Shown here: positions 1,629 through 56,136 of the stretch, one piece after another | Layout of the letters: every line of letters begins with the position of its first letter | How positions within the stretch are numbered: position 1 is the first letter of the stretch | Origin: Shigella phage SP18 | DNA: 64,000 bases | Reading direction: 5' to 3' (one strand) | Sequence record: GQ981382 | Notes under the pieces: model-generated | Told to the model about the DNA's origin: nothing | Database searches by the model: none | What the model saw: only the letters and a program-made list of their open reading frames with translations | Translations under genes and position numbers: made by a program

Positions 1629-1791
1629 TTCCAATTAATACACCGTACAGAGGTTCGTGAGAAGACCTGAACTTGATAGGCTTATAGGTAATAGTACCTT
1701 CATTTTCTGCTTTAATGCGAGCGGCTTCAAATTGAAGTATCATCTCATTTTTGTCAGATTTAATCTTATCAAAATCCGTCGAATTCGTCAT
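1618..1791 (-). CDS. Small hypothetical protein (about 57 aa)
   Basis: Hand-translated minus ORF MTNSTDFDKIKSDKNEM... ending inside the terminator hairpin; below ORF-track size cutoff. Confidence 0.3.
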   Translation of the reverse strand: MTNSTDFDKIKSDKNEMILQFEAARIKAENEGTITYKPIKFRSSHEPLYGVLIGKEA

Positions 1792-26086: not shown

Positions 26087-26350
26087 TTATGCTTTACCGC
26101 CAGAAACAATACCAAAGGTCTCAAAGTCCCATTCAATATCGTCAACATCAACTTTCTTACCAGCAACCACGAATGCGATTTCGCGACGTTTTGCATAGGT
26201 GACAATTTCTTTACCGTCACCACCAAAGAAAGAATAACCATTGCGCTTCATGGTGCCAAAGTCTTCAGCATCACCAGCAAACGCGCGGACTTTAAAGGAA
26301 CCGGCAGGAGCTTTAGTAGATTCAGTAATAAATTCTTGATAAGTTTTCAT
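26087..26350 (-). CDS. Internal-protein-like capsid-targeted protein
   Basis: N-terminus MKTYQEFITESTKA. Confidence 0.7.
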   Translation of the reverse strand: MKTYQEFITESTKAPAGSFKVRAFAGDAEDFGTMKRNGYSFFGGDGKEIVTYAKRREIAFVVAGKKVDVDDIEWDFETFGIVSGGKA

Positions 26351-36628: not shown

Positions 36629-36659
36629 TAAAAAAAGCCCCAACCTTTCGGAAGGGGCT
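36629..36659 (-). terminator. Rho-independent terminator (minus sense) ending the tRNA/ncRNA region
   Basis: Hairpin gcccc-aacctttcggaa-ggggc; plus-strand A7 gives U-run in minus sense. Confidence 0.55.
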
Positions 36660-37542: not shown

Positions 37543-37944
37543 TTAACCTTCATCAACAATAGTATGTGTATTGGCATTGACAATCTGCCACCAGTCAAAA
37601 CGGTTGGAACCATAACAAGGCTTCTTCTCGTTTTCTTTAATGATAACGCGCAGTTCATCTTCAGTCGCAGCCTTTGCGATTAAGTCAGCATAACCGCCAC
37701 GAGGATAATAGCTATCACCCGCGAACAAAAGGAAATTTACCTTCCCAGAAGGGATATAGGCTTCCTTTGGATACTTGTTTCCTGCATGGTCTACCACTTC
37801 AATATAACGATAAGGAATATCAGTATTTTCAATCCATTGCCACGCCGCGGCAGGAGAATCAAAAGCATCTACACCTAAACGGTTATCTTCATCTTTAGAC
37901 GGGTTATTTTCATAATCCGCATATACATAATATTCAACGTTCAT
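37543..37944 (-). CDS. Hypothetical protein (133 aa)
   Basis: ORF track. Confidence 0.5.
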   Translation of the reverse strand: MNVEYYVYADYENNPSKDEDNRLGVDAFDSPAAAWQWIENTDIPYRYIEVVDHAGNKYPKEAYIPSGKVNFLLFAGDSYYPRGGYADLIAKAATEDELRVIIKENEKKPCYGSNRFDWWQIVNANTHTIVDEG

Positions 37945-38140
37945 TATTCACCTTTAGAGATTTTATCCATAACGAAAGAGATTGAACCAATTAAAAATGC
38001 AACTACTAAAGAGATTATATTCTCAGAAGTTGAAAGCATATTCAACATAAAGCCAGCAAACATGCTAAAACCAAAAAGCGGTAACAGCAACAAGGGCAGT
38101 AACATTTCTAATTAATTCGCAACGTTTCATTTTATTCTCC

Positions 38141-38187
38141 TCAGTAGTTGATGGGATAATCATACTACAGTTATCCCATCACGTACA
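38141..38187 (-). promoter_or_regulatory. Early-promoter/stem-loop cassette (PeSL-like)
   Basis: ctcctcagtagttgatgggataatcatactacagttatcccatcacgtacact; 10-bp inverted repeat. Confidence 0.45.
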
Positions 38188-38466
38188 CTAAATTTTTGTA
38201 TATTGTCCAGCTTTAACTTTTTTCAGTTCACGAGGGCTTACCGCGTAAGTGAATGGAGCATTCCAGGAAGAACTGACTTTGTAACCTTTAGTCAACATCA
38301 TTGCTGAAACTTTCTTGTTATCAGGACCGTTTTCGCCTTTAACAAGAAACAACTCAAATGCGCCACCATCAACCGGTTTGGCCTTAACCATCAGATATCC
38401 TTTCAGGTCTTCCAGCATATCCGGGTGACTAATTGATTCGTTAATAAATTCTTGATAAGTTTTCAT
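38188..38466 (-). CDS. Internal-protein-like capsid-targeted protein
   Basis: N-terminus MKTYQEFINES. Confidence 0.7.
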   Translation of the reverse strand: MKTYQEFINESISHPDMLEDLKGYLMVKAKPVDGGAFELFLVKGENGPDNKKVSAMMLTKGYKVSSSWNAPFTYAVSPRELKKVKAGQYTKI

Positions 38467-38470
38467 TAGT

Positions 38471-38520
38471 AGCTCCAGTAGTTGATGGGATAATTATACT
38501 GCAACTATCCCATCACGTAC
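38471..38520 (-). promoter_or_regulatory. Early-promoter/stem-loop cassette (PeSL-like)
   Basis: agtagttgatgggataattatactgcaactatcccatcacgtacat. Confidence 0.45.
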
Positions 38521-38529
38521 ATTACATTT

Positions 38530-38812
38530 TTACATTTTTGAACCACGAATTACACCATAAGCGGCGAAGTCGTCAGAAATATCTTTAGGAGAGTTCTTAC
38601 CAGTTTCAATGAAGGCAATGCTTGACTTCTGACTAAAAGAGGTAATTTTGTTATAGTTGGAGTCAAGGAAGGTATAACCATTTTTACGCAGCTGGTCAAA
38701 GTCTTCAGCGTCGCCTTTACCTTTGAAGTCAACCCATTTGTAGGTGTTTTTCTTCTGAAGACCCAGAGGCCAGGTAATTGTTTTCTACCAAAAATTCATG
38801 AAAAGTTTGCAT
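38530..38812 (-). pseudogene. Internal-protein-like gene interrupted by a +1 frame change at an A5 run
   Basis: N-terminal frame MQTFHEFLVENNYLASGSSEEKHLQMG stops; the adjacent frame continues ...WVDFKGKGDAEDFDQLRKNGY...IAFIETGKN... paralogous to the 26087-26350 product; removing one A restores a 93-aa ORF. Confidence 0.5.
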
Positions 38813-38820
38813 TTGAAATC

Positions 38821-39093
38821 CTATTTTAGATAAATTGCGTATTTTTTATAACCAGCCGTCTCATGACGGAGACCCTTGTCATTGGCAAAACGCTCAATGT
38901 TATTAATTTGGTTCTGGTCAAGTTCTGAAATGTCAAACGCGAAAAAGTTGCGTTTGTTACCAATTGTTATATGGTCAGTCAAGTCAATGCTATACAAGTG
39001 ATTGATATTGTCAATCATAGCTTTGACTGCTTTACTAATTTTTACTTCTTCGTTCAGTTGGGACTCGTTGAAAAATTCATTGAAAGTTTTCAT
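38821..39093 (-). CDS. Internal-protein-like capsid-targeted protein
   Basis: N-terminus MKTFNEFFNES; late-promoter motif TATAAATA 11 nt upstream. Confidence 0.65.
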   Translation of the reverse strand: MKTFNEFFNESQLNEEVKISKAVKAMIDNINHLYSIDLTDHITIGNKRNFFAFDISELDQNQINNIERFANDKGLRHETAGYKKYAIYLK

Positions 39094-39101
39094 AAGAAAC
39101 C

Positions 39102-39434
39102 TTATTTATAAAGTTTTGCCAGTTCTTTACGTCCACGAGCAGACATAATAAATTGTTCATCGCCAATTTTAAAATAAGCCATACCACCGTCAACAGCGAT
39201 ACCAATTTCTTTAGTACCTTCTTTGCCTTTCCACTTGCCACCAGATTTCAGGACAGCTTCAACTGCAGCTTTGGAATATTTGGACGTTTGAAAACGTTCA
39301 TTACCAATCTGAAAGAAAACACCATCTGCATTTTTGGTTAAACCAAATTTCAGAGAGCCTTCACTATCATCAATTGATTTGGTCTCATTGATGGCGGATT
39401 CGGCTAAAAACTCGTTGTAAGTTTTGACGCTCAT
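39102..39434 (-). CDS. Internal-protein-like capsid-targeted protein
   Basis: Start at internal Met giving MSVKTYNEFLAES. Confidence 0.6.
   Translation of the reverse strand: MSVKTYNEFLAESAINETKSIDDSEGSLKFGLTKNADGVFFQIGNERFQTSKYSKAAVEAVLKSGGKWKGKEGTKEIGIAVDGGMAYFKIGDEQFIMSARGRKELAKLYK
39103..39110 (-). promoter_or_regulatory. T4-type late promoter TATAAATA (minus sense)
   Basis: Plus-strand tatttata is TATAAATA in minus sense, upstream of ATG 39093. Confidence 0.5.
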
Positions 39435-39494: not shown

Positions 39495-40182
<688 letters not shown>

Positions 40183-53396: not shown

Positions 53397-53420
53397 GGGA
53401 CCTTCGGGTCCCTTTTTATT
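53397..53420 (+). terminator. Rho-independent terminator
   Basis: gggacc-ttcg-ggtccc followed by ttttta. Confidence 0.65.
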
Positions 53421-53456: not shown

Positions 53457-54326
53457 ATGATTAATCAAACCCCAAAACTTTTAATAGATGTCGGCGAAAT
53501 TGGTAACGCCAGCACCGGCGATATCTTATATGATGGTGGTCGTAAAATTAACGAAGATTTTAATAACGTCTATAATACCTTCGGTGACCAACGTCTTTAT
53601 TCAATCGATAACGGCCAGAACTCTCAGGTCTTGCATGCTACAGGTTATTATCAAAAAGCAACAAACATAATCGAATGGAACACTCCTGTTGCGCTTGGTT
53701 CTCTCCGCGATGTCGATACCTCCAAGGGTGTTGTTACTGCCAGGATTGCCCGCGGTAAAATGGGTGAAGGTATTATCTTCATTAACTCTAACGGGACTTT
53801 ATCACCAACTCAATCTCTGGAAATCGAACTTCAAGGCACAGATACTTTCGTTTCGGCTCCGACCAACAAAATTCGCTTCACAAGCCCTTATACAAAGATT
53901 ACTCTTTGGTGTATCGATGACGCAAACGGCGTTGGCACCTGGGATTATTCAATCGAAAATATGTTTGGTGTAAAACATATTCCTTTGGACCGAACTTATA
54001 ATATCGGTCTGAACGCAAGAGATATTCCGATTGCATTGCGCGGTGATTTCAAAACAATGAAACTTTTGTTAACCGCTATATCTACTGATGAAACTAAATA
54101 CAAAGCATCAGAGGTCATGCTCTTTGTAGACACTCAAGCTAACCAAGTGTATAGCACAGAATACGGTGTATTGCGTCGTGGTCACGTGGATGACGATGAT
54201 GAGTTATATACCATTAACTTTAAAATAGGCGCTGACAACTTCGTTACGGCGACCGTAAGCGCACCAGTCTCCATGAAGCTCGCCATTAAGGTAGCCGAGA
54301 CACAAACCATTGGGGTAGCAATCTAA
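53457..54326 (+). CDS. 9: Baseplate wedge / long-tail-fibre socket protein gp9
   Basis: 289 aa; GEIGNASTGDIL, HATGYYQK, YSIENMFG, VSAPVSMKLAIKV resemble recalled T4 gp9. Confidence 0.9.
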   Translation: MINQTPKLLIDVGEIGNASTGDILYDGGRKINEDFNNVYNTFGDQRLYSIDNGQNSQVLHATGYYQKATNIIEWNTPVALGSLRDVDTSKGVVTARIARGKMGEGIIFINSNGTLSPTQSLEIELQGTDTFVSAPTNKIRFTSPYTKITLWCIDDANGVGTWDYSIENMFGVKHIPLDRTYNIGLNARDIPIALRGDFKTMKLLLTAISTDETKYKASEVMLFVDTQANQVYSTEYGVLRRGHVDDDDELYTINFKIGADNFVTATVSAPVSMKLAIKVAETQTIGVAI

Positions 54327-56136
54327 TGAAACAAAATTTAAAAATAGGCGTGATGGTCGATGATGGTACCGGCGATTATCTTCGTCTCGGCGGCCAAAAA
54401 TTAATAATAACTTTGATGACCTTTACTACCAGCTCGGTGATGGAGAAAATCCTCATGCTGCTGGTGCATGGAAAACATGGTCAGTAGCCGACGGTACAAC
54501 TCTGGAAGCCGTTATGGGTCGTAGCTATGCAGTGAATACCTCAAATGGTATGATTACTGTTAAGCTTCCTAAAGGAACTCCGTCTGAATATAATTACGTT
54601 ATTCGTTTGCGTGATGTGTTTGCAACTTGGCAAGTCTCCCCGGTGACGATTGTTCCGGCTGTTGGCGACACAATGAAAGGTTCTCCTGACCCTGTTGTTA
54701 TCCGTCGTAACCTGGCAGATATCGAACTGGTTTATTGCTCTCCTGGCCGTTGGGAATATATTGACAACAAACAGATTGACAAGATTTCGAATAACGACGT
54801 GGCAACTGTTGAGACCCAGCAATTCATCGCAACAGAAGGTCAAACGGACTTCCTGGATGTGTTTAATGGTCGTCCTTATAACATTGCAAGTCTCGAAGTT
54901 AAACATCGTGGTAACGACCTGTTTTATGGCAAAGATGATATTTTCGACCCGGTGAATGCTGAATTCGGTTCGCCTGGTGCAGCGCCTGGTGAAATTGTAA
55001 CCCTTGACGGTCGCAATATTCGTTTACGTATGCCTTGTGCAGCTGGTGACACGGTTATTGTCAGAACATTCAACGATGGTATTGCTCAGTATCGTAGTTC
55101 TTATAACCGTCGAGATGTTCAAATCCGTGATTCGAAATTTACTCTTGAAACCCCGGTCGAAGGCTCTTTGGTTGTAGCTGATTTATCTACTAAACACACA
55201 TTTATGGTTACTGAACTTGCGGTATCTCCTAGCAGTCCAATTAACCCGAATGCATGTGAAGTTTATATCAACAGCATATTACAGCACGAAGCAGGAACTG
55301 CAAACTATCCAGCTTATACATGCGAAGGTGCTAATGGTGACACTGCAGAAGAGTGTACAGATAATGGTGGTCAATGGGCTAAATCAAAAGAAGACTATAT
55401 AACAACCTTTGATGAAGACAACCGTATTGAATCTTTTGAGTTTGCTCGCACATTTGAAGATGGTGATATTCTGTCTATCGTTTGGTATAATAACGATATT
55501 GGCACCACAATGACTCTTGATGAAATTACAGATGAAACAAATAACATCTATGTTTCCCAGGGTCCAGAAGTTTCAATCACCGGTGATATAAGAATTACGG
55601 ATTACGATAATCCATTTGCTCCTAACCTGGAACCGGTTGACCCGAGCGAAATTAAACCATCTGCTGTTTCGATTCTCTTTAATATGTTCCATCCAATTGG
55701 CACAATTTACGAGAATACGACTAACCCAAATAACCCTGCGACATATATGGGTATGGGAACATGGAAGCGACTTGAAGAGCGTGTTTTGATTGGTTGGTCT
55801 GCTGACCCAGCCTCAAACTTCCATACAAACAATAACGACCTGGATTCTTCTGGTGTTCCGCAGGCAACCGCAGGGGGTACTGGTGGTAATGTACAAATTC
55901 ACATTAAACCAACCAATATTCCTAAAATTCAGACCGATGAAAAAGTATTGGTAGCTGATGCAACTGGCCCAATTATTGTTGGTGGTTGCCTGATTGACCC
56001 GGATGCACAAGGTCCTGCTTATACAAACTATCGCGAAGATTATGCGACTATTAATGAAGCTCTTGACCCACTGGCACAGCCAATAGATACGCTTCCTCCA
56101 TATTTGATTGTTTACCGTTGGGTAAGGATTGCATAA
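54326..56136 (+). CDS. 10: Baseplate wedge protein gp10; reading frame interrupted at an A5 run near 54393-54397
   Basis: Frame from ATG 54326 gives MKQNLKIGVMVDDGTGDYLRLGG then stops at 54485; the adjacent frame continues NNNFDDLYYQLGDGENPHAAGAWK...YLIVYRWVRIA collinear with recalled T4 gp10; one extra A would restore a 603-aa ORF. Confidence 0.85.

Follow-up and report, generated by a model that had tools for sequence, protein, structure and literature searches.

The internal proteins (IPs) of T-even phages are a diverse group of injected anti-defence proteins that have only a capsid-targeting sequence (CTS) in common, with IPI*, which targets GmrSD, as the worked example (PMC3012670). Their propeptides comprise 10-19 residues and are cleaved at an L/I-x-E motif; positions 4 and 7 are important for targeting, positions 8 and 10 for processing (PMC9026906). 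On standard laboratory hosts, T4 can dispense with its internal-protein genes (PMC9026906). Here we analyse a disrupted gene of this type in the window, the 64,000-nt stretch of the Shigella phage SP18 record GQ981382. The preliminary description had presented this gene as an internal-protein-like paralogue interrupted by a frame change in a run of five A residues (A5).

The internal-protein locus and its gene family

The locus is the IP region of a VR7-like member of the genus Gaprivervirus, a T4-like coliphage, and the closest records, those of CJ20 and phage 212, are 96-97% identical to the window over 20 kb. On the minus strand, the genes are arranged in the order Trna.3/Trna.4 homologues, a 92-aa ORF, the broken gene, Ip9, a 121-aa ORF, 57B, 57A and gene 1, the last encoding dNMP kinase. 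The broken gene lies within a polymorphic array of IP cassettes located between Trna.4 and the 57B, 57A and gene 1 block. The features of the region, together with a paralogue found elsewhere in the window, are as follows.

38188..38466, minus strand: 92-aa ORF bearing a CTS, neighbour of the broken gene
38530..38812, minus strand: disrupted internal-protein gene, 283 nt, compared with 300 nt for the 99-aa orthologue (VR7 gp154, 'internal head protein')
38821..39093, minus strand: Ip9 (PHROG 7673), neighbour of the broken gene
39103..39110, minus strand: match to the T4 consensus for late promoters, TATAAATA, located 10 nt before the start of Ip9
39495..39950, minus strand: 57B homologue (Pfam PF23474, Acb1, E 1e-59)
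38476..38538 and 38142..38204: 63-nt intergenic linker from the repeat search, containing a hairpin with 16-18-nt arms (GATGGGATA...TATCCCATC) and flanking IP cassettes
26093..26350, minus strand: intact 85-aa paralogue, MKTYQEFITE..., a few hundred bases from a denV (endonuclease V) homologue

The entire cassette is missing in four contigs that carry an identical neighbouring gene (TH55, MN01, SRR25010926 and SRR21291484), and this absence from close relatives shows the gene to be accessory. Contigs with identical neighbours also vary in the cassettes that they contain, which include 99-aa, 80-aa Ip5-like, 92-aa, 84-aa and 73-77-aa Ip6-like forms. The CTS-coding 5' ends of the neighbouring IP genes constitute a DNA repeat family (D1; 38444..38480, 38790..38826 and 39071..39107). 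Together with the intergenic linkers, these common 5' ends could allow cassettes to recombine with one another, and such exchange would be consistent with the pattern of presence and absence. From its position, TATAAATA is a putative promoter for the run comprising Ip9, the broken IP gene and the 92-aa gene; the count of this motif in the window does not exceed chance, and a scan of the locus for sigma-70 promoters and terminators likewise gave chance-level results. The 57B homologue is labelled 'RNA ligase' in many phage records, yet it matches Acb1, an anti-CBASS cyclic-nucleotide phosphodiesterase, and hence a known counter-defence gene is situated directly beside the IP array.

The intact form of the broken gene encodes a protein that matches PHROG 2667, 'internal head protein', in a profile search (E 2e-21, residues 1-97), and the annotation of the VR7 orthologue names an internal head protein resembling RB69 ORF125c. 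Its N terminus, MQTFHEFLVE, fits the T4 CTS of about 10 residues (MKTYQEFIAE-like) and keeps the aromatic residues at positions 4 and 7, while the homologues P0003 and P0004 and the window paralogue all begin with MKTYQEFI.E. The L/I-x-E motif of the gp21 prohead protease is present as L8-V9-E10, with a second instance, L14-A15-E16, in the intact orthologue. The paralogy to another internal protein that had been proposed from the window is confirmed by the gene at 26093..26350, which is 31% identical by tblastn (E 4e-13). Across 21 distinct intact alleles, dN/dS is 0.064 (mean dN 0.019, mean dS 0.298), which indicates that the intact gene is functional and encodes a protein under strong purifying selection.

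Structural searches with the intact protein added little to this assignment. A Pfam search returned nothing above threshold, and the sequence-profile search of the PDB gave only non-significant matches, repeatedly to the IF3 C-terminal domain (E 0.2-0.5). The AlphaFold2 model, built on a 5-sequence alignment, has a low-confidence pLDDT of 60, and a Foldseek comparison of this model with the PDB produced no match with E <= 0.001. On the sequence evidence, this is an accessory gene for an internal protein of the T4 type, and by analogy with T4 IPI* the role of the intact protein is probably counter-defence.

The broken gene and its intact relatives

The ATG at 38812 on the minus strand opens a 27-codon ORF, MQTFHEFLVENNYLASGSSEEKHLQMG, as had been described, and this ORF ends at a TGA stop at 38729..38731. 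The remainder of the gene is in the +1 frame and stays open as far as a TAA at 38530..38532. The parts of the disrupted gene are listed below.

38729..38812, minus strand: residual 27-codon ORF, of which residues 1-15 are authentic (the CTS MQTFHEFLVE plus NNYLA), followed by 12 out-of-frame residues and the TGA
38533..38775, minus strand: +1-frame remainder, 81 codons corresponding to intact residues 19-99, all of them, from TWPLG to SKM, matched by tblastn
38769..38775, minus strand: deletion junction, a single surviving ACCTGGC, 18 nt upstream of the A run, placed by alignment with relatives
38747..38751, minus strand: A5 run within GAAGAAAAACACC, of wild-type length; read in the intact frame, it lies within the Lys-Lys-Asn codons AAG AAA AAC
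38524..38539, minus strand: 8-nt tandem duplication across the stop codon, reading AAAAATGT twice on the coding strand and leaving the protein unaffected

The 0 and +1 frames overlap by about 45 nt (38729..38775), and the A5 run lies inside this overlap. The earlier reading had the two frames meeting at GAAGAAAAACACC, with the second continuing for about 65 codons. The second frame is indeed open, but its meeting point and its length both have to be revised: when the intact protein is used as a tblastn query, the +1-frame match begins at T19 of TWPLGLQKKNTYKW... (38775), upstream of the A run, and extends for 81 codons, at 99% identity to the intact orthologue P0001. The ORF list of the window holds no entry for this +1-frame remainder. 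Independent translation of the 81 codons was considered and rejected, as they lack an ATG, GTG or TTG start that would leave at least 20 aa. The AAAAATGT duplication is common to phages 212, P479 and DCP80 and is not found in PSD2001, CJ20 or VR7; it serves as a lineage marker.

The region was first aligned with phage 212, PSD2001 and VR7, and the comparison was then widened to 29 independent records, comprising 18 GenBank Gapriverviruses and 11 metagenome or Logan contigs. In all 29 relatives the gene is a single uninterrupted 99-aa ORF, MQTFHEFLVENNYLAEAKTWPLGLQKKNTYKWVDF...RGSKM. Each relative aligned contains 17 nt, ACCTGGC-RGAAGCAAAA, that the window does not: the relatives read AATT-ACCTGGC-RGAAGCAAAA-ACCTGGC-CTCTGG, whereas the window reads AATT-ACCTGGC-CTCTGG. 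The two ACCTGGC copies form 7-nt direct repeats separated by N10, both of them perfect in 24 of the 29 relatives, and the 17-nt length of the deletion equals the spacing (period) of the repeats, with one copy kept. By contrast with the 17 nt, the A run does not distinguish the window from its relatives, as GAAGAAAAACAC, which includes the A5 run and encodes Lys-Lys-Asn, is present in every one of the intact orthologues (29/29).

Outside the deletion, the window copy shows no substitution relative to PSD2001, which indicates that the deletion is very recent, and it differs by one substitution from each of phage 212, TH54 and one Logan contig. Among the roughly 30 records, only the window carries the deleted allele. 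The deletion junction had no match in IMG/VR viral contigs and none in JGI metagenome contigs, and among contigs with identical neighbouring proteins the gene is either intact or absent with its whole cassette, the deletion occurring in none. Confinement of the allele to one record is consistent both with a recent mutation private to this phage and with an artefact.

The DCP80 record (PQ671644.1) is 100% identical to the window over 186 nt downstream in the gene, and at about 1687..1760 it has a run of N exactly over the deletion site, joined to unrelated sequence near rnlA. This record, 141 kb in length, is evidently a scaffold with gaps. As a candidate sister record of the deletion DCP80 is uninformative, the N run covering the site.

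Indel accuracy of the assembly and alternative readings

About 70 CJ20 coding sequences were compared with the window, and the indels were polarised against three relatives. Indels specific to the window comprise the 17-nt deletion, a few differences in length that keep the frame, and the following four one-base homopolymer changes.

36630..36636, intergenic: A7, compared with A6 in relatives; no coding effect
38073..38077, Trna.4 homologue: T5 on the coding strand, compared with T4 in relatives; splits a conserved 61-aa ORF
53413..53417, intergenic: T5, compared with T6 in relatives; no coding effect
54396..54400, gene 10 (baseplate): A5 (CCAAAAATT), compared with A6 in relatives; breaks the gene up, leaving a 53-aa and a 540-aa ORF

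Gene 10 (baseplate wedge/tail pin; 54326..56136, plus strand) is frameshifted after codon 25, at a run that is A6 in CJ20, VR25, VR20 and VR26. In T4, gene 10 is essential. A viable phage cannot do without gp10, and thus the one-base homopolymer changes, that in gene 10 included, are almost certainly sequencing errors. The Trna.4 homologue (37944..38163, minus strand), a 61-aa membrane protein that in relatives belongs to Pfam Phage_T4_Y07D, is split into 32-aa and 53-aa ORFs at a run that is T4 in phage 212, PSD2001, VR7 and DCP80. This site is about 450 nt from the broken IP gene, and the break is a probable second homopolymer error. The breaks in gene 10 and Trna.4 lower the trust that can be placed in any indel of this record, and they call for caution before biological conclusions are drawn from small indels in this genome. 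In the phage 212 record (PQ765507.1), the structural genes gp53, gp6, gp7, gp8, gp10, gp11, gp12 and terminase appear only as 'misc_feature: similar to ...', which suggests that this record, too, contains frame-breaking errors.

These errors bear most directly on the possibility that the 17-nt deletion is itself artefactual, produced in vitro by polymerase slippage between the repeats or by a mis-polished long-read consensus, and that the gene is truly intact. We regard this as unlikely, while giving it more weight than any other alternative. That four window-specific homopolymer indels exist, two of them breaking conserved ORFs (gene 10 and Trna.4), points to an error-prone assembly, and the restriction of the deleted allele to a single record among about 30 is in keeping with an artefact. 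However, all of the demonstrable errors are 1-nt homopolymer changes, whereas the loss of 17 nt with ends in exact 7-nt repeats is the classic footprint of slippage in vivo and differs in class from them. In addition, about 65 other coding sequences common to the window and CJ20 are intact and in a single frame.

There is also a slim chance that the deletion is both real and selected, the loss having provided escape from a host defence that senses the protein or is set off by it, or having removed a cost on the propagation host. In that event, the direct-repeat pair, which is kept in most relatives, would represent a hotspot acting as a recurrent off-switch for the cassette.

Two further readings concern the A run. 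According to the first, the gene is functionally split, with +1 ribosomal frameshifting or transcriptional slippage on the A run joining the two frames, perhaps beside a short peptide. The presence of the A5 run inside the 0/+1 overlap of about 45 nt is compatible with this arrangement, but we find it hardly credible. The two-frame architecture occurs in none of the 29 relatives, so nothing could have evolved to need such joining, and the overlap was made by the deletion itself. Moreover, bacterial transcriptional slippage has been described on runs of about 9 A/T, and a run of only five A residues is far shorter than those on which bacterial RNA polymerase slips (PMC5009743). Inspection of the sequence around the 0-frame stop, GGT TGA C, revealed neither a prfB-like +1 shift site nor an upstream Shine-Dalgarno stimulator, and a product whose frames were joined beyond the junction, on its downstream side, would be devoid of the invariant residues. 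A -1 frameshift was also considered and rejected, the -1 frame being a non-homologous chance ORF.

The second, in which a 93-aa gene is interrupted by one extra A in GAAGAAAAACACC, whether genuinely inserted or miscalled, has a negligible probability: taking out one A does restore a continuous frame of 93 codons, as had been noted, and homopolymer miscalls do occur elsewhere in the assembly, but A5 is the length of the run in all 29 intact orthologues, the intact protein has 99 residues rather than 93, the +1-frame homology sets in 18 nt before the run, and the 93-aa product carries ASGSSEE in place of the conserved AEAKTWPLGLQKK and loses the family-invariant residues P21, G23 and K26. The idea of a homopolymer error is reasonable for the assembly in general, yet the A5 run at 38747..38751 is correct, and the proposed check for reads with four A residues is directed at the wrong site.

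A probable recent pseudogene and its comparison with known systems

The explanation that we consider probable is that the gene is a very recent pseudogene, created by a genuine 17-bp deletion between direct repeats through a slipped-strand or microhomology-mediated event. Deletions that end in short direct repeats, one copy of which is kept, are the footprint of slipped-strand mispairing and microhomology-mediated deletion. The recent pseudogenisation that had been listed among the earlier options is therefore the best supported of them, although the lesion is a 17-bp deletion between direct repeats and involves no additional A.

In the proposed course of events, the intact protein would be made late and taken into the prohead core by means of its 10-residue N-terminal CTS. 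The prohead protease would then trim it after L-x-E, and injection together with the DNA would presumably follow. Slipped-strand mispairing or a microhomology-mediated event, which we infer took place in the phage and not in the course of sequencing, would have removed the 17 bp between the ACCTGGC repeats, leaving one copy and shifting the frame after codon 15. Translation would consequently yield only a 27-residue peptide, consisting of the targeting sequence, the first cleavage site and a nonsense tail, with the 81 downstream codons silent. This peptide may still be packaged and cleaved to a 17-residue remnant. The dispensability of IP genes on laboratory hosts makes such a loss tolerable (PMC9026906).

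On this reading, the case is an unexceptional one, a single inactivated copy of a variable accessory gene at a locus of T4-like phages that is well known to be hyperplastic. The biological weight of the finding is small, and a genuine deletion would supply a minor instance of IP cassette loss. In practice, the finding is of use for annotation and quality control, in that the gene is best recorded as a pseudogene by 17-bp deletion and the A run should not be edited as a 'repair'.

Comparison with genes that employ programmed +1 frameshifting (prfB) or slippage (dnaX and IS-element genes) reveals a likeness that is superficial, limited to overlapping frames and an A run. In contrast to these types, the arrangement in the window is not conserved, it has neither an adequate slippery sequence nor a stimulator, and its run is of wild-type length.

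The likeness to T4 internal proteins is more substantial. As in T4, the gene is small, encodes an N-terminal CTS and an L/I-x-E site, and is part of a tandem IP cassette array whose members are set apart by conserved hairpin linkers and vary in presence among close relatives. That the window gene is dispensable is suggested by this presence/absence variation together with T4 genetics (PMC9026906, PMC3012670). Unlike T4 IPI*, with its target GmrSD, the window family has a mature part without detectable similarity to that protein, and the window copy is inactivated.

The direct orthologues of the broken gene are the VR7 gp154 or RB69 ORF125c-like 'internal head proteins' of PHROG 2667, which occupy the same genomic position and are 94-100% identical to the window at the protein level over residues 19-99. 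Compared with these VR7 gp154-type orthologues, all 29 of which are intact, the window copy has lost 17 nt, which puts it out of frame after codon 15. The lesion itself resembles direct-repeat deletions of the slipped-strand type, in that its length equals the repeat period, its ends lie in perfect 7-nt repeats and one repeat copy is retained. The rII deletions of T4 are a classic example of deletion between short direct repeats.
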